Virus record (IMG/VR): IMGVR_UViG_3300032225_000493
Location: 1-37,978 of that record
Source: a virus
Taxonomy: Duplodnaviria; Caudoviricetes
Strand: one strand, 5' to 3'
Length of the DNA stretch: 37,978 nucleotides
Positions 2 to 19,149 of the stretch are shown in pieces. Within the stretch, counting starts at the first letter, position 1. Each line of letters opens with the position of its first letter. The notes under the pieces are model-generated. The model did not search any database. It saw only the letters and a program-made list of their open reading frames with translations, and was not told the origin of the DNA. The translations under genes and the position numbers were made by a program.

Positions 2-3000
2 CAACTACCTGACACAGGACGGGGCGCTGGAACTACCGCCGGTGGAGGACGAGGAACAGCTGGTGGAGCTGGTACTACTGAACAGCAGCCGGATAACGGA
101 AAAGGTAAACGCAGGGGACCCAGCGGTGTCGAAGCCGGCGGAGCCCAAGCTGGCGGAGTTGGCGGCGAAGGATCAGGAGCTGAACTGGGAGGACTTTCTG
201 ACTTAGACCTAGAAGCATTATTTAAAGACATCAATGAGTCTTTAGAAGAGAAAGAAACAAAAGGTAAGCGAGAAAAGCCAACTGGCGGGGCTAGAAAACC
301 AAGAGAAGTTAAAGAGCCGGGCGCTAAACGGGAACCTAAAGCGCCTGCTGTTGACGTTTCTCCAGAGATGCAAGCCTTGGTTGAAGAGCTAAGAATTGCT
401 TTAACTGGCAAAGCGCCACAAGTAACCAAAGAAACTACACCAGAAAACAGTCCAGAGCGCTTGGATAAACAAGTTGGTGAAGCATTGGGACGTATTGCCC
501 AAGATACAAAGAACACCAGTGATGACCCTAACAGTGGTCAATACTCACGCAAGGGTGATCAAGAGTACGCTAACGTACAGCCAATCATTCAAAAGGTATG
601 GAACTTAGCTGGAGAAACAATAAGTGATTTTAGTGCGCGAGTTAAACACATTGTTAATGTGTTGGTTCCCCAGCTAGGGAAAGCAATCGTAGCCCACATC
701 CAAACATTTATTGGCAGCCTACGTACCGTAATACAAAAGCGGCCAAAGAACCAAACGCCTGTCCAAGCTGAACCTATTGATACTGAATCACGGGTTGTCT
801 ACCTTGGTAAGTCACGGTTTGCCAGCGATGGTATTTATCTACCACGCGCACAGTCCCAACACGCTTACTCTGCATTAGAGAACCTAGAAGCGCAAGTTGG
901 TAACATTGATGAGTTTGTAGCTAATGAACTGGGTTATCCATCGGTAGAAAAGATGGCCAAGGGATTGGCGGGCTATCAGATTGATGGCTTGGCTCTGGCT
1001 ATTCAGGCCAACAAGCTTGGCAAAGGCTTCATCATTGGTGATGACACCGGCGTAGGTAAAGGCCGTGCAGCTGCTGCCATGATCGTTTGGGCTAAGAAGA
1101 ACGGAAAGATCCCTGTCTTTGTGACTGTTAATGATTCAATGTACACATCCATGTACGAGGACTTAATTAACATTGGTCATGAAGAGTTCAAGATTGGCAT
1201 GACCAATAACAACGCTGCTATTTCTAGGAATATGGGCGGCGGTAAGATCAAGACTGTATTTGAGAACAAGGGTAAAGATGGCCCTGAGTTGATGGCTTAC
1301 ATCAAAAAGAACGGTGCATTGCCAAAAGGCATGGACGTTTTGTTTACAGCCTACTCTCAGTTAAACGGTGGAGCTGGCTCTCCTCAACGTCAAGATGCCA
1401 TAGCGTCTTTGGTAGCCCAAGGCAAAGCTGTCTTGATTATGGACGAGGCTCATAACGCAGCTGGTGTGCCATCTGATACAGAGTCTAGGGGCCAGAACGC
1501 ATTCTTTATGTCTTTGCTTACAGGTATAGACTTGCTTGGCAAAGATGTAGAGACTCCAGAAGACTGGACACCACCACCAGCGGTTTATTTGTCTGCCACG
1601 TTTGCAAAGCGTCCAGACAACATGCCACTCTACATCCATACCAACTTGCGGTATGCGGCTAACACTCCAGAAGAGCTGACCACTTTGTTTGGTAAGGGCG
1701 TTAAGACAGACGTTCTGCAACAGGTTTCCTCTGAGATGTTGGTGGAGTCTGGCTCTATGCTTCGCCGCGAGAGATCGTATGAAGGCGTGACGATGGAGTT
1801 TGTGACGGATGATGAGAACGCACCGCGCGACATTCGTGAAGTTGACAAGGTAACAACCATCCTTAGAGCGTTGGTCAATGCTGACCGTGCTTTGAAAGAA
1901 TGGTCAAAAGATCCTGCAAATCAAGCGTTAATTATTTTTAACCTTGGCCCTCCCGGCTCCATGATGGGTAAAGAAGGACCGGGCGTCTTTAAAGAAGCCA
2001 AAGGCAACCCTTTCACTTCCGTAGTTCACAACTACATCGGTACTTTACTGCTGTCTGCAAAGACTCAGACTGCCGTAGACATGGTGGTGGACAAGATGAA
2101 CAACGGCGAGAAGGTCGTTGTTGGCTTGCAGAATACCAATGGTAGTGCGCTAGATGATTTTGTTGCAAAGAACGGCATCAAGATTGGCGATGAGATTCCC
2201 AACTTTGGCTGGCAGACTTTGCTTCAGCGAGCAATTGATTCGACTAGAAGAATCACATTGAAGGCGGCTACTGGCAATCCAAAAGACAATGTCAAGGTAG
2301 AGATTCCATACTCATTGATGCCTCCGTCAGTCAGAGCCGGCTACGACAATCTGGCGGATATGGTCAAGGACTTTCAGTCTGATCTACCTGTTGCACCTAT
2401 TGATTACATGCGTACACAGCTTGAGGGTAAGTACGTTTGGAACATTGGTGACAAGACCGTTGTGGGTAATGAACCTCCAGCGGGAGTTAAGGCTCGCCGC
2501 TTGGTGGTCAAGGAGATTACTGGCCGTAACACAGCCGTAGATTACAGCGGTGATACACCTAAGTACATGGCTTTAGATAACCCAGAGCGTGTAGAGATGA
2601 TCTCTTCATTCCAGAACGGTGAAGAATCAGAGAACGGTCCAATTGATGTATTGATCATTAACTCTGCTGGTGCGACTGGTATCTCGTTACACGCATCCGT
2701 TGAAGCTTTTGATCAGCGCCCACGCCACATGGTTGTGCTCCAGCCTCATGGAGACATTAGCGTGTTCATCCAGTTGCTGGGTCGTATCCACCGCACTGGT
2801 CAGGTCGAGTGGCCTTCATTCACGATGTTGGCTACCGGCATTCCAGCCGAGCGCCGCATCTTAGCCATGCTCCGTAAAAAGCTGTCTAGCTTAAAGTCCA
2901 ATACTTCAGGTGGCTCTAGCAGCACAAAGGTAAATGGCGTTGACTTCATTAACAGATATGGTGACGTTGCTACTGCTGAATACTTGAACGAACATGCTGA

Positions 3001-6000
3001 CATTCGCGCATTCTTAGCCCAGCAATCATATGCAGATCCTGACGAAGCCGCCGGCACAGACTTGGCTCACAAAGCCTCTGGTACAGCTGGCCTTCTGTCC
3101 TCTTCCGATCAGCAAGAGTTCTTTGACTCCATCGAAGCTAGTTACTTGGCTAATATTGAGCTGCGTAACGCAACGGGAACTAACGCCTTGGAGCGCCGGG
3201 TTCTGCCGCTTAACGCTGAGATGATCAAAGAGAACCTGATCGAGGAAGGCTTGGACAGCTCTAATCCATTCTTAGCAGATGTGGTGATGGCTCAGTTCAA
3301 TGTAGATGTGATTGGGTCAATCCCCACACAGAAAAACATTGAAGACGATATAGCCCAAGCTTTGAATGGCCGTACCGCCCAACAAGTCGTAGAAGAGATT
3401 GATACAGACCTGAACACTATCTTTGTTGAAGTGCGTAATCAGATCATCTTGAAACAGCAAGCTTTGAGCGCCGCTATTGCCGCACCGGGAGCTACTGAGA
3501 AAGATATTGCAGAGGCAACAAAGCAAAAAGAAGCTTTGGACATACAGTTTGCCACTCTTGGTGAGCGTAGAGAAAAGACTTTAAGCGCTTTGAGGAATCA
3601 GTTTGCCATTGGTACTGGCTTTGATTCATTCATGATTAACAACGTGCCAGCCGGTGCTGTTGTTATCGGTGTTAAGGTGGACAAGGCTAGGATTGGTAAG
3701 TCAAAGACTGGCAACCCATACTCGCCTTCTAACTTCCAAATCATCATTAAGCGCAACATCCCAGAGGGCCGAGTAGCTCCTACGTTGGCTACCCTTGAAG
3801 GACCAAGCATTGAGCGAAGCGTTCCAATGCGTAGACCTCCACTAGACGAATGGTTTGCTCTGAAGTCAGTGACGGGCGGTCGTACTACTCGTTATATTGC
3901 ACTTGGTAACATCTTAAAAGCAGCCCAGCTGTTTGACAGAGATGGTGGTGAGATTGCAAAGTTCACCGTCATGAATCAGTTGGAGCCAGTCTCCGGCGTG
4001 GTCATGCCTGTTAAGTACCAGCCTGTTGCTATCAGCGAGCAGCCTGTGCGTATGCGTAACGCTAATGCTGCAGTGCAATATACGTTAGCTGCTTGGAATG
4101 AAATCCTACGCAACAAGTATGACGCCACTCAGATGGAAGATTACAAAAACATAGCAGATAGTTTGGGGCAGTTTATGTTGCCAAACTTGCCCAGCTTTGC
4201 GCCGTATGCAGAAAACTCAAAGAACTCTTACACCAGCAAAGTTGTTCGTGGTGCTAACAACATTTGGACATTAACGTTAGACGGCTACAGGCCGACTGGC
4301 TTTAGGTTGTCTATCTCTGGTGATGCTCCAAAGAAGTTTGTAACGTCTATCAAAGGCGTTACGCTGGCTAAGAAAAAAGGTGGTCCTTATGAGATGTCCC
4401 CACGGGATGTTATTGCAGACCCAGCAAACCTTATCGCCCTGATTAAAAACCTACACAAGCAGTACCCTGCCACAGTGGAAGCTGACGCTGGTCAACTTGC
4501 CCGTGACGTAATGAAAGTCGAGTTTGATGACAGCGAGTCCAAGAAGGGTATGTTCTCTCGCGCGATCCCAGAGGGCGGTCAGAGCGTTGAGGACGTAGAA
4601 GCGCAGATCAAAGCCATCAAGGGTATCAATGTTAAAGTGGTTCAGTCTGCTGATAACTTGCCTGACGCAGCTGCTCCCTCAGATGTAGAGGGCGCTTGGT
4701 TCTCAGGTAACACTGTTTACTTGGTGGCTGATAACCTACCAAATGCCAAGCGCGTTCAAGAAGTGTTGGCCCATGAAGGTATTGGTCACGCCGCAATGGA
4801 GGGCATGTTGGGCTCTGACCTAATGAAGGTCATGGTTCAGAACGTTCAGAACTTAGAGAAGACTTCTAAGGTTGTTCAAGAAATTGCCGCCCGTGTAGAC
4901 AAGACCCAGCCCGGTTTAACAGCCGAGCGCCGCGCCAAAGAGATTGTTGCCATGATGGCAGAGCGTGGAATGCACAACAGCTTCATCCAGCGAATCATTA
5001 AAGCTATCCGTGGTTGGTTGCGTAATAGTGGGTTTACTCTGCAGTTCTCTGATAGTGACATTATTTCTTTGTTGCAGAACGCTGAAAAATACGCTGGTGA
5101 AAGATCAACTGCAGCCGGTGACGTTTTGTACTCCAGAAACTACAAAGGCGCTGCAGGAGCGTTGGCTACATGGAATGCCGAAGATGAGCTTAAGATGTCG
5201 GACACACTTGTTTACAAGTACATCGACAAGCACATTGACACCAAGCGTGTCGTTGAAGCCATCAAGATGGAAGCTGGCCGTATTGAAGACAACTGGAACC
5301 CTTACCTTCAAGAAGAGTTGTTCCACGGCAGAACAGCCAAGCAGACCATAGACTTCCTGCAAGATGACCTGCGTCCTTTGCTTGAGGATATGGGCAAGCG
5401 CGGCGTTACGTTAGATGATTTCAATGCTTATCTGCATAACAGACATGCAAAAGCTCGTAATGACTTTATTGCTAAACGTGACCCAGCCAAGCCTGATGGT
5501 GGATCTGGCCTGTTTAACGATGAAGTAGACACCTACATGGATGCTTTGGATGCAAATCCATCGCTTAAGAAAACATACGAAGAGCTTGCTCAAAAGATTG
5601 ACAAGATCATTGATGATACTCAAACATTGTTAGTGTCATCTGGTTTGGAAAAGCAAAGCACGATTGATAACTGGCGTGAGAGCCTGCCTTTTTATGTGCC
5701 TTTAAACCGTGAGCCTGATGAACTTGACTTTATCAATGCAAGCAGTGGTATGGGCCAAGGCTTTGCAGTAAAAGGTTCATTTACTAAGTCTGCAGTAGGA
5801 TCGTTTAAAACTGTTAGTGACATTATTGCAAGCATTGCACTTGCGCGTGAACGTGCCATCGTTCGTGCAGAGAAGGTGCGTGTTGGCCGTGCGCTGTATG
5901 CACTGGCCATCCAGAACCCTAATCCTAACTTCTGGAAGCCAATCAACCCTGACGCCATCAAAAACAAGACCAAGCTTATTGATGAGTTAGTTGGCATGGG

Positions 6001-7867
6001 GATGAACCCAGCTGACGCAAACAACATTTTCCAAGAGCCAAAGACTGGTTCTATTGACTCAAAGACTGGCCTTGTTAAGTACGCGGTCAATCCAAACATG
6101 CGTAACTCGCCTAACGTATTGGCATTGCGTATCAATGGTGAAGACCGCTATGTGTTCTTTAACCCCGGGAATCCTATTGCCAAGCGCATGGTGGAAACCC
6201 TTAAGAACATGGGCACGAACGATCTGGATGAGGTTTTGAGTAGCGTAGCAGAAGTAACCCGCTTCATTGCTGCGGCCAATACTCAGTACAACCCTGTGTT
6301 TGGTGCGTGGAACTTTGCGCGTGACGTTCAAGGCGCTGCGATTAACTTGTCTAGTACGCCTATTGCTAATCGTAGAGGTCAGGTTATTGCTGACTCGATG
6401 ATTGCTGTTAGAGCTATTTATCGCGTCCTGCGCGGTAAGCCGGCCACAAACCCAGCGATGCAGGGATGGATGGACTTGTTTGAGAAATTCCAGAAGGCTG
6501 GTGGCCAGACAGGATTCCGCGAACAGTTTAGCCGTGGTAAAGGTAGCGACACAATTGTTACGCGCGAGTTAAGTCGCCTTAACCAAGGTAATGCTAAAAA
6601 AGCCGCCCAAGCTGTCTTTGATTGGCTGTCTGACTATAACGATGCGATGGAGAATGCTGTCCGTCTGGCTGCATTCAAAGCCGCGTTGGATGAAAATATA
6701 TCCCTTGATCAGTCAGCAAGCATAGCTAAGAACATCACTGTTAACTTTAACCGCAAGGGTGCAAGCACTCAAACGATTGCCGCCTTGTATGCGTTCTTTA
6801 ACGCAAGCGTACAAGGTACCAAGCGGTTAGGTGAAACACTGCTTACCAAAAACAAAGACGGCAAGCTGGTACTAAGCTCTGTTGGCAAGAAGATTATTGC
6901 CGGTGGTATGTTCATCGGTGTTATGCAAGCTGCCCTTCTGGCTGCAGCCGGCTTTGGCGGAGATGATCCTCCTGAGTGGGTTAAGTCAAAAAACTTGGTT
7001 ATCCCAGTTGGCGATGGTAAGTACATTACTGTCCCCATGCCGCTTGGATTTAACGTCTTCCCTAACATTGGTAGACTGGTTGCTGAGTACATGATGATTC
7101 AGTCTGGCGCGATGAATGGTAGACGCGACATCCAAAAGACGGTTACTAGCATCTTCTCTGCAATGTTGGATTCTGTTAATCCGCTTGGTTCCAGCACGTT
7201 TGCTCAAACACTGGCGCCAACCATTGTTGATCCATTTGTTGCGATTGCCGAGAACAAAGATGCCTTTGGACGTCCCATCTCTAAGGAAGACAAAGCTCTT
7301 GCACCTTCGCCCGGATACGCGCGTAGCCGTGATACTGCAAACTTTGTGTCCCAAGGTTTGGCTTACGCGCTGAACTTTATCACTGGTGGTGGCGATAAAG
7401 GAATTGGCTTGGTCAGCCCTACGGCGGATCAGATCAGTTATATAGCCGGCCAGTATGCTGGTGGTGTGGGTAAACTTGTTGTCCAGACTGCTGAATACGC
7501 TAAAGCCAAAGTTACTGGTTCCGAGGTCCAGAACTACCAAGTGCCAGTGCTAGGCAAGGTTTACGGCGACATTAACACGCCTGCAGCGATTGCCGGTAAG
7601 TTCTACGACAGCATCAAAGTTATGGCCAATCATGAAAGAATTATCAAAGACATGAAGGGCAAGGGCGTAGAGGCTTACTACAAAGAAAACCATGAAGCCA
7701 GACTGTGGCGCAGGGCTAACTACGTAGAGAACGAGATTGTTAAGCTGAAGAAAGAAAAAAAGGACCTTGTTGCAAAGAATGCACCAGAGGCCCAGATTAA
7801 ACGCAAGGATGAAGCCATCAAGCAAAAGATGGAAGCGTTTAACAAAGAAGTTAGCAGGGTCCAATAA
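2..7867 (+). CDS. Giant polyvalent protein, 5'-truncated (Strawberry-notch-like SF2 helicase + zincin-like motif + LPD38-like C-terminus), probable internal virion/ejection protein
   Basis: The frame is open from base 2, upstream of the listed ATG at 368, so the gene starts before the window. Walker A GFIIGDDTGVGKGR (~1025-1066), DEAH (1442), YLSATFA, and the helicase-C motifs IINSAGATGISLHA / IQLLGRIHRTGQ / AERR match the Strawberry notch family. LAHEGIGH at ~4766-4789. The C-terminal PEWVKSKNLVIP...VPMPLGFN region resembles LPD38. Confidence 0.85.
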   Translation, partial: QLPDTGRGAGTTAGGGRGTAGGAGTTEQQPDNGKGKRRGPSGVEAGGAQAGGVGGEGSGAELGGLSDLDLEALFKDINESLEEKETKGKREKPTGGARKPREVKEPGAKREPKAPAVDVSPEMQALVEELRIALTGKAPQVTKETTPENSPERLDKQVGEALGRIAQDTKNTSDDPNSGQYSRKGDQEYANVQPIIQKVWNLAGETISDFSARVKHIVNVLVPQLGKAIVAHIQTFIGSLRTVIQKRPKNQTPVQAEPIDTESRVVYLGKSRFASDGIYLPRAQSQHAYSALENLEAQVGNIDEFVANELGYPSVEKMAKGLAGYQIDGLALAIQANKLGKGFIIGDDTGVGKGRAAAAMIVWAKKNGKIPVFVTVNDSMYTSMYEDLINIGHEEFKIGMTNNNAAISRNMGGGKIKTVFENKGKDGPELMAYIKKNGALPKGMDVLFTAYSQLNGGAGSPQRQDAIASLVAQGKAVLIMDEAHNAAGVPSDTESRGQNAFFMSLLTGIDLLGKDVETPEDWTPPPAVYLSATFAKRPDNMPLYIHTNLRYAANTPEELTTLFGKGVKTDVLQQVSSEMLVESGSMLRRERSYEGVTMEFVTDDENAPRDIREVDKVTTILRALVNADRALKEWSKDPANQALIIFNLGPPGSMMGKEGPGVFKEAKGNPFTSVVHNYIGTLLLSAKTQTAVDMVVDKMNNGEKVVVGLQNTNGSALDDFVAKNGIKIGDEIPNFGWQTLLQRAIDSTRRITLKAATGNPKDNVKVEIPYSLMPPSVRAGYDNLADMVKDFQSDLPVAPIDYMRTQLEGKYVWNIGDKTVVGNEPPAGVKARRLVVKEITGRNTAVDYSGDTPKYMALDNPERVEMISSFQNGEESENGPIDVLIINSAGATGISLHASVEAFDQRPRHMVVLQPHGDISVFIQLLGRIHRTGQVEWPSFTMLATGIPAERRILAMLRKKLSSLKSNTSGGSSSTKVNGVDFINRYGDVATAEYLNEHADIRAFLAQQSYADPDEAAGTDLAHKASGTAGLLSSSDQQEFFDSIEASYLANIELRNATGTNALERRVLPLNAEMIKENLIEEGLDSSNPFLADVVMAQFNVDVIGSIPTQKNIEDDIAQALNGRTAQQVVEEIDTDLNTIFVEVRNQIILKQQALSAAIAAPGATEKDIAEATKQKEALDIQFATLGERREKTLSALRNQFAIGTGFDSFMINNVPAGAVVIGVKVDKARIGKSKTGNPYSPSNFQIIIKRNIPEGRVAPTLATLEGPSIERSVPMRRPPLDEWFALKSVTGGRTTRYIALGNILKAAQLFDRDGGEIAKFTVMNQLEPVSGVVMPVKYQPVAISEQPVRMRNANAAVQYTLAAWNEILRNKYDATQMEDYKNIADSLGQFMLPNLPSFAPYAENSKNSYTSKVVRGANNIWTLTLDGYRPTGFRLSISGDAPKKFVTSIKGVTLAKKKGGPYEMSPRDVIADPANLIALIKNLHKQYPATVEADAGQLARDVMKVEFDDSESKKGMFSRAIPEGGQSVEDVEAQIKAIKGINVKVVQSADNLPDAAAPSDVEGAWFSGNTVYLVADNLPNAKRVQEVLAHEGIGHAAMEGMLGSDLMKVMVQNVQNLEKTSKVVQEIAARVDKTQPGLTAERRAKEIVAMMAERGMHNSFIQRIIKAIRGWLRNSGFTLQFSDSDIISLLQNAEKYAGERSTAAGDVLYSRNYKGAAGALATWNAEDELKMSDTLVYKYIDKHIDTKRVVEAIKMEAGRIEDNWNPYLQEELFHGRTAKQTIDFLQDDLRPLLEDMGKRGVTLDDFNAYLHNRHAKARNDFIAKRDPAKPDGGSGLFNDEVDTYMDALDANPSLKKTYEELAQKIDKIIDDTQTLLVSSGLEKQSTIDNWRESLPFYVPLNREPDELDFINASSGMGQGFAVKGSFTKSAVGSFKTVSDIIASIALARERAIVRAEKVRVGRALYALAIQNPNPNFWKPINPDAIKNKTKLIDELVGMGMNPADANNIFQEPKTGSIDSKTGLVKYAVNPNMRNSPNVLALRINGEDRYVFFNPGNPIAKRMVETLKNMGTNDLDEVLSSVAEVTRFIAAANTQYNPVFGAWNFARDVQGAAINLSSTPIANRRGQVIADSMIAVRAIYRVLRGKPATNPAMQGWMDLFEKFQKAGGQTGFREQFSRGKGSDTIVTRELSRLNQGNAKKAAQAVFDWLSDYNDAMENAVRLAAFKAALDENISLDQSASIAKNITVNFNRKGASTQTIAALYAFFNASVQGTKRLGETLLTKNKDGKLVLSSVGKKIIAGGMFIGVMQAALLAAAGFGGDDPPEWVKSKNLVIPVGDGKYITVPMPLGFNVFPNIGRLVAEYMMIQSGAMNGRRDIQKTVTSIFSAMLDSVNPLGSSTFAQTLAPTIVDPFVAIAENKDAFGRPISKEDKALAPSPGYARSRDTANFVSQGLAYALNFITGGGDKGIGLVSPTADQISYIAGQYAGGVGKLVVQTAEYAKAKVTGSEVQNYQVPVLGKVYGDINTPAAIAGKFYDSIKVMANHERIIKDMKGKGVEAYYKENHEARLWRRANYVENEIVKLKKEKKDLVAKNAPEAQIKRKDEAIKQKMEAFNKEVSRVQ
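3..206 (+). CDS. Putative overprinted ORF (+1 frame) inside the giant gene, 5'-truncated
   Basis: Frame 3 reads NYLTQDGALELPPVEDEEQLVELVLLNSSRITEKVNAGDPAVSKPAEPKLAELAAKDQELNWEDFLT-stop (TAG 204-206) with G/C-ending codons. The giant frame is Gly-rich over this span. Confidence 0.5.
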   Translation, partial: NYLTQDGALELPPVEDEEQLVELVLLNSSRITEKVNAGDPAVSKPAEPKLAELAAKDQELNWEDFLT

Positions 7868-12529: not shown

Positions 12530-12537
12530 TGTAGAAT
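12510..12537 (+). promoter_or_regulatory. Sigma70-like promoter for the sRNA
   Basis: TTGCAC-N16-TAGAAT overlapping the end of ruvC. Confidence 0.5.
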
Positions 12538-12544
12538 AAATTCC

Positions 12545-12614
12545 GGCAATGCAGTTGCCACTCTCCTTTGTTGGGTTGTCCTTTCCCCCGGGCTAATCAC
12601 TCGGGGGTTTTTTT
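12545..12614 (+). ncRNA. Candidate ~70 nt small RNA with an exposed anti-Shine-Dalgarno seed
   Basis: 5' hairpin GGCAAT-GCA-GTTGCC, single-stranded ACTCTCCTTTGTTGGGTTG, then an intrinsic terminator. Confidence 0.55.
12585..12614 (+). terminator. Rho-independent terminator
   Basis: CCCCCGGG-CTAATCA-CTCGGGGG followed by T7. Confidence 0.8.
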
Positions 12615-12632: not shown

Positions 12633-12726
12633 GCTAACACGCATGAGGATTGTCGAATAAAGGTTGCAGAGTTTCAGCCTATGCAATCTCCAGATGCCGC
12701 TGGCTTCAGTCCTCAGTCGTGTTGGT
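12633..12726 (+). ncRNA. Structured RNA element (multi-branch hairpin closed by a GGAUUG/CAGUCC helix)
   Basis: GCTAACACG/CGTGTTGGT and TGAGGATTG/CAGTCCTCA stems; inner AGGTTGCA/TGCAATCT and CCAG/CTGG hairpins. Confidence 0.55.
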
Positions 12727-12729
12727 GGT

Positions 12730-12793
12730 AAGCGGGTTAGCGCCGCTTGTAGTTTTCCTTAGTTCGGTTTTTACACAAACACTGCTTCATGTG
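12730..12793 (+). repeat. Scaffold unit 1: GCGGGTTAGCGCCGC-N30-AAACACTGCTTCATGTG
   Basis: Exact 15-mer (12732-12746) and 17-mer (12777-12793) shared with unit 2, with identical 30-nt spacing. Confidence 0.85.
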
Positions 12794-12820
12794 CCCACTA
12801 ACTTTATTTTTTGTAGGGTA

Positions 12821-12851
12821 TTGACAAACCCAAATCGTTTTAGTTTATAAT
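12821..12851 (+). promoter_or_regulatory. Sigma70-like promoter
   Basis: Consensus TTGACA and TATAAT, but with a long 19-nt spacer. Confidence 0.6.
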
Positions 12852-12853
12852 TC

Positions 12854-12981
12854 GCTTGCTAGGTGTGGAAACCGATGCAAGTAGAGCCGTTAATGAAGTC
12901 CCGACCCCGACTGGGGTAGCGCGACAGCCACAAGCTGAAGTGTTTTTCCACCGGGGTTTCATTAACGGCTTTTTTGTTTTT
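12854..12981 (+). promoter_or_regulatory. Attenuator-like structured leader
   Basis: 5' hairpin with a GTGGAA loop; 19-bp stem 12885-12903/12952-12970 followed by a T-tract; TTCCAC inside the stem-loop. Confidence 0.6.
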
Positions 12982-13075
12982 GAGACTGGGATTGTGTTGC
13001 GGGTTAGCGCCGCAAACTCCTAAAGTGGACGAATGTTTTGATGAAACACTGCTTCATGTGAACAGTCCCAGTCTC
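12982..13075 (+). repeat. Scaffold unit 2 inside a 13-bp closing stem
   Basis: GAGACTGGGATTG/CAGTCCCAGTCTC encloses the 15-mer (12999-13013), 30 variable nt and the 17-mer (13044-13060). Confidence 0.85.
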
Positions 13076-13087
13076 TCCTCCACACGC

Positions 13088-13397
13088 AGCCGTCAGAGCG
13101 CGTTAGCCAATGGCCTGTATGGGCTGAACTCAAAAAACACAAGAACCTCGGTGTGACCCGCACCTCCAAGTAGAGTAATCGAACGGGATAAACAAGGAAG
13201 TCGAAAGACACATACCCTAGTACGCTGGGAGTTGATCGTTAAGGATGGTGAAAACTGACCTTATCGGGATCTCAGGGGAGGGCGGCTTGGCCAGCCGATA
13301 GTCCACGTAAAAACTGGACAACGCTCCTTGATAATGAGCTGTTAGCCCTTTACGCCTGCCCTGTGGGGGAGGGAGGGTCAACGGGTAAGAGGGCTCT
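13088..13397 (+). ncRNA. Candidate ~310 nt structured non-coding RNA or origin region
   Basis: Serial hairpins with GAAA and UACG tetraloops; no convincing ORF. Confidence 0.4.
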
Positions 13398-18984: not shown

Positions 18985-19149
18985 TTAGTCGTCCGTGTCT
19001 GTGTTGAGTTCTACAAAAGGGTACTGCTCGTCATGGATGAATGCGTCATCTACCATTGCAATGTTCATGCGGTTGCCCGCGTCCCAAATCAAAACATCTA
19101 GGTCTTGTGGCAACTGGCTGAGTTGTTGGATTAGTTCAAATACTTTCAT
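18985..19149 (-). CDS. Small protein (MKVxELIxxL family)
   Basis: MKVFELIQQLSQLPQDLDV; AAGGAG RBS. Confidence 0.7.
   Translation of the reverse strand: MKVFELIQQLSQLPQDLDVLIWDAGNRMNIAMVDDAFIHDEQYPFVELNTDTDD

Follow-up and report, generated by a model that had tools for sequence, protein, structure and literature searches.

A phage RNA family with a constant three-way-junction scaffold and an exchangeable loop: candidate antisense regulators of translation start sites

Two structured units and their neighbors

The window, that is, the whole stretch of DNA analyzed (37,978 bases), is a phage record that is ∼60% complete. Two copies of a structured unit were found in a gene-free stretch bordered on one side by a gene for a RuvC-like resolvase and on the other by early genes, beyond which ParB-like, helicase and primase genes are located. 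Positions 368–7867 encode a protein of 2,499 aa that has a Strawberry-notch-like helicase domain and an LPD38 domain. The 15-mer (12732–12746 and 12999–13013) and the 17-mer (12777–12793 and 13044–13060) that the initial annotation had reported as shared by the two units were both located exactly, with a spacing of 267 nt in each case, and no extra copy of either was detected in the whole window with up to 3 mismatches (shuffled sequences gave means of 0.53 and 0.14 matches). The inserts of both units are 30 nt each, with the sequences given in that annotation, and the first 2 nt of each belong to the P2 hairpin. The longest exact antisense match to the inserts elsewhere in the window was 9–10 nt, in keeping with the earlier statement that it contains no long match.

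The predicted fold of both units, on the plus strand, consists of two hairpins (P2 and P3) and an outer stem (P1). Unit 1 (12721–12802) folded weakly (z = −1.2) and matched the covariance model, whose training alignment included it, at 63.9 bits. It contains P1 of 8 bp (12721–12728/12795–12802), P2 (12730–12735/12743–12748, loop GUUAGCG), a variable loop (12749–12778) and P3 (12780–12782/12791–12793, loop UGCUUCAU), with a U-rich run after P3 and the unit. Unit 2 (12982–13075; z = −4.7), also a training member, scored 67.9 bits and contains P1 of 13 bp (12982–12994/13063–13075), P2 (12997–13002/13010–13015), a variable loop (13016–13045) and P3 (13047–13049/13058–13060). Folding agreed with the proposals that each unit is closed by an outer stem of its own and that the second motif forms a CAC…GTG hairpin, which is P3. 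An anti-Shine-Dalgarno (anti-SD) word was present in each insert as described, namely TTCCTT at 12755–12760 in unit 1 and CTCCT at 13017–13021 in unit 2.

The units are members of a non-coding array on the plus strand. Located 3′ of the resolvase gene is an element with an anti-SD word (ACTCTCC) and a terminator (12530–12614), part of which (12560–12614) resembled Betaproteobacteria_toxic_sRNA below threshold (20.8 bits, cut-off 50, E = 0.16). It is followed by an array member at 12636–12725, recognized by folding and sequence, in which the stem frame AACACGCATG...GTCGTGTTGG carries a different cargo RNA. This conserved frame (AACACGCATGGGG...CCCCAGCCGTGTTGG) was found with at least 37 distinct cargos of 34–87 nt, three of them of the present unit type, in the window, in L006, L008, L017, L026, L038 and L053 and at other loci, and it resembles a processing cassette common to phage ncRNA arrays. 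An attenuator-like leader (12855–12981; stem 12885–12970 plus a U run; z = −7.5 and −5.6) lies directly 5′ of unit 2, and pairing is possible between its 5′ end and the terminator arm; in related phages the same slot is occupied by at least three unrelated leader types. A large conserved non-coding element (13073–13373), with a stem 13073–13083/13363–13373 recognized by eye, gave z = −0.8 and no Rfam match. In the arrays of L010 and L017, degenerate tRNA-like elements were read by eye downstream of the unit; they have Leu/Ser-type D and T arms with an enlarged D loop and received no Rfam call.

A σ70-like promoter with two perfect hexamers (TTGACA, 19 nt, TATAAT; 12821–12851, plus strand) was read from the sequence; the leader, unit 2 and the large RNA all lie downstream of it. 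A promoter scan restricted to spacings of 16–18 nt does not list this site, and −35/−10 pairs with 18–19 nt spacing recur in homologous loci. Across the family, a promoter-like site was present within 60 nt upstream of 45 of 214 units, compared with 1.4 in shuffled sequences. Some units stand directly before a terminator in the leaders of lambdoid prophages. The region was partly present, in small shares and always as assembled contigs, in eight RNA runs, and relatives of unit 2 occurred in two of the four runs examined (X1, with a 135-nt contig over 12983–13120, and X4). Contigs reveal neither the strand nor the ends or level of an RNA, and the runs also covered coding parts, so they do not show transcription.

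A conserved three-way junction in phages and prophages

A pattern joining both motifs recovered 121 loci from 18 of the 64 parts of IMG/VR, from which the total was estimated at ∼440 stretches (∼460 with motif 2 alone). Carriers include hundreds of lake-water phages, some Burkholderiales prophages and chromosomes, and the cultured Acidovorax phage ACF1, with 1–3 dispersed copies per record (36 records). The contig search and covariance model proposed in the initial annotation thus recovered a widespread family with conserved flanks and a variable middle. GTDB yielded 13 stretches, from Variovorax (3), Curvibacter, Achromobacter, Undibacterium, three Burkholderiales or betaproteobacterial bins, one gammaproteobacterial assembly and three copies of one phage contig. 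This last contig (L127, L129 and L130; terminase, ncRNA array, portal) is identical in three unrelated assemblies, which suggests contamination or mis-binning, and its array resembles that of ACF1.

The covariance model found a unit in 2 of 151 genomes in a sample of the Curvibacter family and scored the ACF1 unit, which sits between terminase and portal, at 50.6 bits; genome G387 has three units, two of them in prophage leaders. BLAST against annotated plasmids and phages returned no unit, and ACF1 was reached via a neighboring element. Apart from Vreelandella, in which the shared contig occurs, the named isolate hosts all belong to Burkholderiales, and the host of the window is therefore presumably a member of Burkholderiales too. 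Stand-alone chromosomal copies were found in Variovorax and Curvibacter. One Variovorax chromosome (L128, 2984–3074 and 4043–4135; G006:C2) has two copies ∼1 kb apart that are divergent and yet share their loop; one of them lies beside a secreted chorismate-mutase-like ORF.

Alignment of 225 distinct units revealed a three-way junction of a long P1, P2 and P3. Inside P1, the order is the covarying P2 (loop GUUAGCG), the variable loop and the invariant CAC-UGCUUYAU-GUG hairpin P3. The base covariation of P2 noted earlier was confirmed by folding and by the family: its four variable pairs were retained in 220, 216, 200 and 188 of the 225 units, and double-change cells numbered 117 versus 31 after shuffling (78-row alignment). 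G-U pairs outnumbered A-C mismatches (67 versus 20 in the 225 units), which indicates an RNA of the plus strand. P1 reached at least 7 bp (median 14) in 219 of 225 units, compared with 39–55 if the arms were swapped between units. P3 was invariant in the 78-row alignment and hence gave no covariation test. When motif 2 alone was used as the anchor, the P2 motif was present in 106 of 109 distinct contexts (118 loci), 93 of them exact and 13 variant, some compensatory (e.g., GT..AC and TG..CA); two of the three contexts lacking it were cut by locus ends. A loop–loop contact (AGC/GCU) between P2 and P3 is predicted. It is near-invariant, shows no compensatory change and fits most variants, the exceptions or variants being one P2 with AGU and five P3 offering GCUA.

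At the gathering score, Rfam returned nothing for the whole window, and over both units, with E up to 10, it returned no sRNA-scaffold, C4, tRNA or ribozyme family, so the earlier view that the units belong to no named RNA family stood. ARAGORN found no tRNA in the window. Identity as a ribozyme, riboswitch or tRNA was rejected on these Rfam and ARAGORN results. An antisense leader peptide through P2 was rejected as well, since ATG is absent there in most units.

The variable loop and searches for its targets

The modular organization that had been proposed, a constant scaffold with an exchangeable middle, was found across the 225 distinct units; the fixed length of that middle was not. Its equal length of 30 nt holds for the two units of the window, where we regard it as a coincidence, and for 15 of the 225 units, and a fixed 30-nt guide was rejected because the free loop spans 10–58 nt (median 29, quartiles 25–32). 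Final loop counts are from the 225-unit set, since a looser earlier pattern had mis-parsed 5 loops. Depending on the cut-off, the loops form 46, 76 or 108 clusters. A single 3′ outer-stem sequence occurred with 9 unrelated loop clusters across 13 units, which is evidence for loop exchange. Loops in the unit-2 slot differ by indels around common words instead of by whole exchange, and loop subfamilies are conserved across phages.

Clusters were weighted and compared with dinucleotide shuffles. An anti-SD pentamer was present in 7.1 of 46, 14.7 of 76 and 28.3 of 108 clusters, compared with 2.6, 4.3 and 6.3 in the shuffles, none of 150 of which reached the observed value. Sense SD words were not enriched (0, 0.8 and 1.7 clusters versus 2.1, 3.4 and 5.5 shuffled). 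Moreover, CAT or CAC followed 3–10 nt on by an anti-SD word occurred in 4.8, 9.1 and 13.6 clusters (1.1, 2.1 and 3.2 shuffled), which is the order expected of a guide against start sites, and the reverse order was at chance level (1.0, 3.4 and 4.6 versus 1.4, 2.4 and 3.5). The reverse complements of several loops read as an SD followed by a start codon, and the anti-SD words had a mean unpaired probability of 0.60. The pentamer was present in 76 of the 225 units and absent from 149, and ∼80% of clusters lacked it. The proposal of anti-SD middles therefore stood as to enrichment, antisense polarity and CAT-first order, and failed as a general rule. Several loops form a hairpin of their own (in the looser-pattern set, z fell below −1.5 in 11 of 73 clusters), and TCC in the unit-2 type can pair with GGA downstream. 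Neither G/U-rich nor C/A-rich words were enriched at the cluster level, and GcvB-like G/U-rich seeds were rejected on that ground.

Searches close to the units gave control-level results. Pairing within ∼500 nt had a mean z of 0.04 downstream and 0.08 upstream (164 units); start regions of the own locus paired better than control in 30 of 64 cases and worse in 32; and nothing exceeded control in the own phage records, whole or partial (25 loops, 21 records), or within 10 kb. In ACF1 (∼58 of 59 kb), the best score was 40 against a shuffled mean of 38. Over 21 phage records, pairings scoring at least 38 showed no overall excess (439 versus 393 for reversed loops), and 22 versus 6 of them fell in predicted start regions, in a loop set in which loops are related and 5 of 223 were mis-parsed.

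Wider searches gave a similar picture. Four target patterns run against IMG/VR found only the units themselves or scattered matches, and the unit-1 target plus ATG had 8 unrelated matches in JGI metagenomes. None of 301 Burkholderiales genomes matched in one sample; in a second, 50 of 201 matched, which is the control level, with no recurring gene. No recurring partner was found in two freshwater genera or in 251 genomes, and in three copy-carrying genomes only the copy itself matched exactly. Of the initial proposal of guides against host ribosome-binding sites, start-site-like words were found in a minority of loops, and all target searches were at control level. What these negatives rule out is a long, perfect guide to a conserved gene in the genomes sampled; short, gapped pairings and strain-specific targets in unsampled hosts would escape them.

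Individual candidates were also inspected. S-layers can serve as phage receptors. In Undibacterium, 15 contiguous bases of a prophage loop can pair (2 G-U) with the start region of a DUF4214-domain host gene that is present in three copies and that we take to be S-layer-like (p about 0.11 given the seed-based search). As general targets, S-layer-like genes were rejected, since the average pairing of 15 such start regions was poorer than that of 138 control regions, and nothing strong was seen in their start regions in two freshwater genera. In part of this comparison some loci had been picked by guide patterns, which biases its real-versus-reversed counts, and these counts are left out of account. 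The start region of a comEA-like gene of the host can pair over ∼14 bases with a loop of a G387 prophage (L672), and comEA was likewise rejected as a general target (10 versus 12 reversed at scores of at least 28; 218 loops, 29 start regions). Surface-receptor genes are a lead only. The L090 loop matches an unrelated prophage (L624, 401–423) at 23 of 23 nt in the start region of an SSB-like gene, which is probably chance and illustrates how start-site-like the loops are.

Five further candidates were discarded. Pairing of unit 1 with the adjacent leader (12863–12875) is lost in homologues with other leaders; pairing of unit 1 with the start region of ORF 18985–19149 (−29.3 kcal/mol) is no stronger than shuffled sequences can give (mean −26.8, best −31.3); and the double match in a G560 scaffold gene is broken by synonymous changes in the 95%-identical orthologue of the window. 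A 19-nt match to a small phage gene involves one gene family on the sense strand and was taken as chance, and the match of an L075-family loop to a virion-like gene family (16–17 nt, 13 of 17 matches) is within chance for the scan.

Proposed function, alternatives and relation to known systems

The reading we favor, in which we place about even confidence, is that the units are a family of trans-acting antisense sRNAs that is C4-like but unrelated to C4. The fold, the plus-strand polarity, the loop exchange and the anti-start-site signature are drawn from sequence comparison. We infer transcription, processing, a host cofactor and repression from C4 and mobile-element sRNAs. A unit would be transcribed from a nearby σ70 promoter or cut from an array transcript, and P1 would protect both RNA ends. 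The invariant loops may pack together or bind one host factor, holding the variable loop out. That loop would form short, imperfect pairings like the a′/b′ loops of C4 RNA, and pairing at translation-start regions of mRNAs of the host or of co-resident mobile elements would block ribosome loading, apparently with no need for a phage-encoded effector. More speculatively, and with clearly more doubt than belief, the family may be a reprogrammable translation-silencing platform of Burkholderiales phages: a self-protecting frame that recruits a host factor, takes any anti-start-site loop, needs no phage protein and is part of modular ncRNA arrays whose members have a processing frame in common, its loops being exchanged against strain-specific host genes (receptor, defence) or genes of rivals.

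Alternatively, the working part could be the conserved core, which would engage a host protein as its decoy or ligand (RNA polymerase, a ribosomal protein, a defence nuclease or a tRNA-binding enzyme), and the middle would be a tolerant linker or optional extra arm. The invariant 11-nt and 14-nt motifs, including stems that never vary, the wide range of loop lengths with many loops forming hairpins, the location of units among pseudo-tRNAs and the lack of a target found all fit a decoy. It leaves unexplained the strand-specific anti-SD enrichment, the CAT-before-anti-SD order and the loop subfamilies conserved across phages, and ARAGORN and Rfam gave no tRNA in the window; we consider it unlikely.

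A cis-acting, self-targeting regulator of the phage's own early operon, in the manner of C4 RNA and its P4 analogue CI RNA or of an antiterminator such as put RNA, would agree with the frequent position of units directly behind a promoter and with the adjoining attenuator-like leader or, in lambdoid prophage leaders, the terminator that follows. With complementarity at control level within ∼500 nt, 10 kb and whole records, the unit 1–leader and scaffold-gene matches not conserved in homologues, and stand-alone chromosomal copies in Variovorax and Curvibacter, this reading is distinctly improbable. Still less probable is a sponge that pairs with host sRNAs or ncRNAs of other phages instead of mRNAs. 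Phage anti-sRNAs have reportedly been described, most loops lack an anti-SD word, and non-coding targets would evade start-site searches; a sponge for anti-SD sRNAs, however, should hold sense SD words, which are not enriched, and the same holds at the cluster level for words rich in G/U or C/A.

A guide RNA of a dedicated effector (CRISPR-, TIGR- or IS110-like, with a DNA or RNA target) shares the constant frame with an exchangeable middle, the 1–3 copies per record and the RuvC-like resolvases often lying upstream, but it is the least credible reading, as Pfam found no Cas, Nop, IS110, Hfq/Sm, ProQ or TROVE domain among the 63 ORFs of the window, the most frequent neighboring protein clusters (recombination and small early genes) are seen at 28 of 88 units at most, the resolvases belong to different families, loop lengths vary and no protospacer-like perfect match turned up in the searches made.

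If the antisense reading is true, phages diversify RNA guides much like receptor-binding proteins, with dozens of loops on one frame, and each loop would mark a gene whose silencing in the host a lake phage requires, most of these hosts being uncultured. Being compact and protected at its ends, the frame might also be of use as a scaffold for synthetic sRNAs in Betaproteobacteria. The copies in cultured, harmless carriers such as Undibacterium sp. Rencai35W, Variovorax paradoxus 35b25 and Curvibacter sp. CHRR-16 make the family directly testable. To our knowledge, the phage small RNAs known so far are mostly of the one-RNA, one-seed type.

A full-text search for the motif sequences, together with topic searches, found no description of the family, and the motifs were absent from the supplements searched, namely those of Brewer 2021 and those of Fremin 2023 other than the alignment archives. 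The family may stand without a name among the DNA-virus candidates of Fremin 2023, which number roughly 8,500. Within the reach of these searches, our verdict is that the units form a new RNA family. Betaproteobacteria toxic sRNA (RF02278) is an anti-SD small RNA of the same host group; it has a linear seed and a terminator and no P1/P2/P3 frame, and the units themselves do not match it.

TIGR systems have 36-nt dual-spacer units with box C/D motifs and an adjacent Nop-domain gene (PMC12045711). TIGR-Tas and CRISPR arrays and the units alike have constant flanks with variable inserts and occur in phages. In contrast to TIGR, CRISPR and IS110 systems, the units have no tandem fixed-length repeats and, in the ∼60% complete record of the window, no adjacent Cas, Nop or IS110 gene; in the initial annotation, too, the units were not recognized as CRISPR.

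C4 RNA of P1/P7 is an RNA of ∼80–100 nt with an outer stem and two inner hairpins that is released from a longer transcript by cutting; its variable single-stranded part sets specificity, one part covering the ribosome-binding site (PMC5320573). The three-stem fold closed by an outer stem is found likewise in the units, and a single-stranded part antisense to start-region features in only 14.7 of 76 clusters. Unlike C4, which has short a′/b′ loops, the units have one long variable loop; their invariant loops differ, no C4-type Rfam match appeared with E up to 10, and cognate target sites beside the unit or in the same operon were not found. The units are not C4 members, the Rfam and cis-target tests having both failed. 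DicF and RocRp, functional analogues of the units, are mobile-element sRNAs predicted to pair with host mRNAs and block their translation (PMC12197685; PMC6744872). They have a single seed and a terminator end and use Hfq or RocC, whereas the units have their ends locked in a long stem and combine one frame with dozens of unrelated loops.
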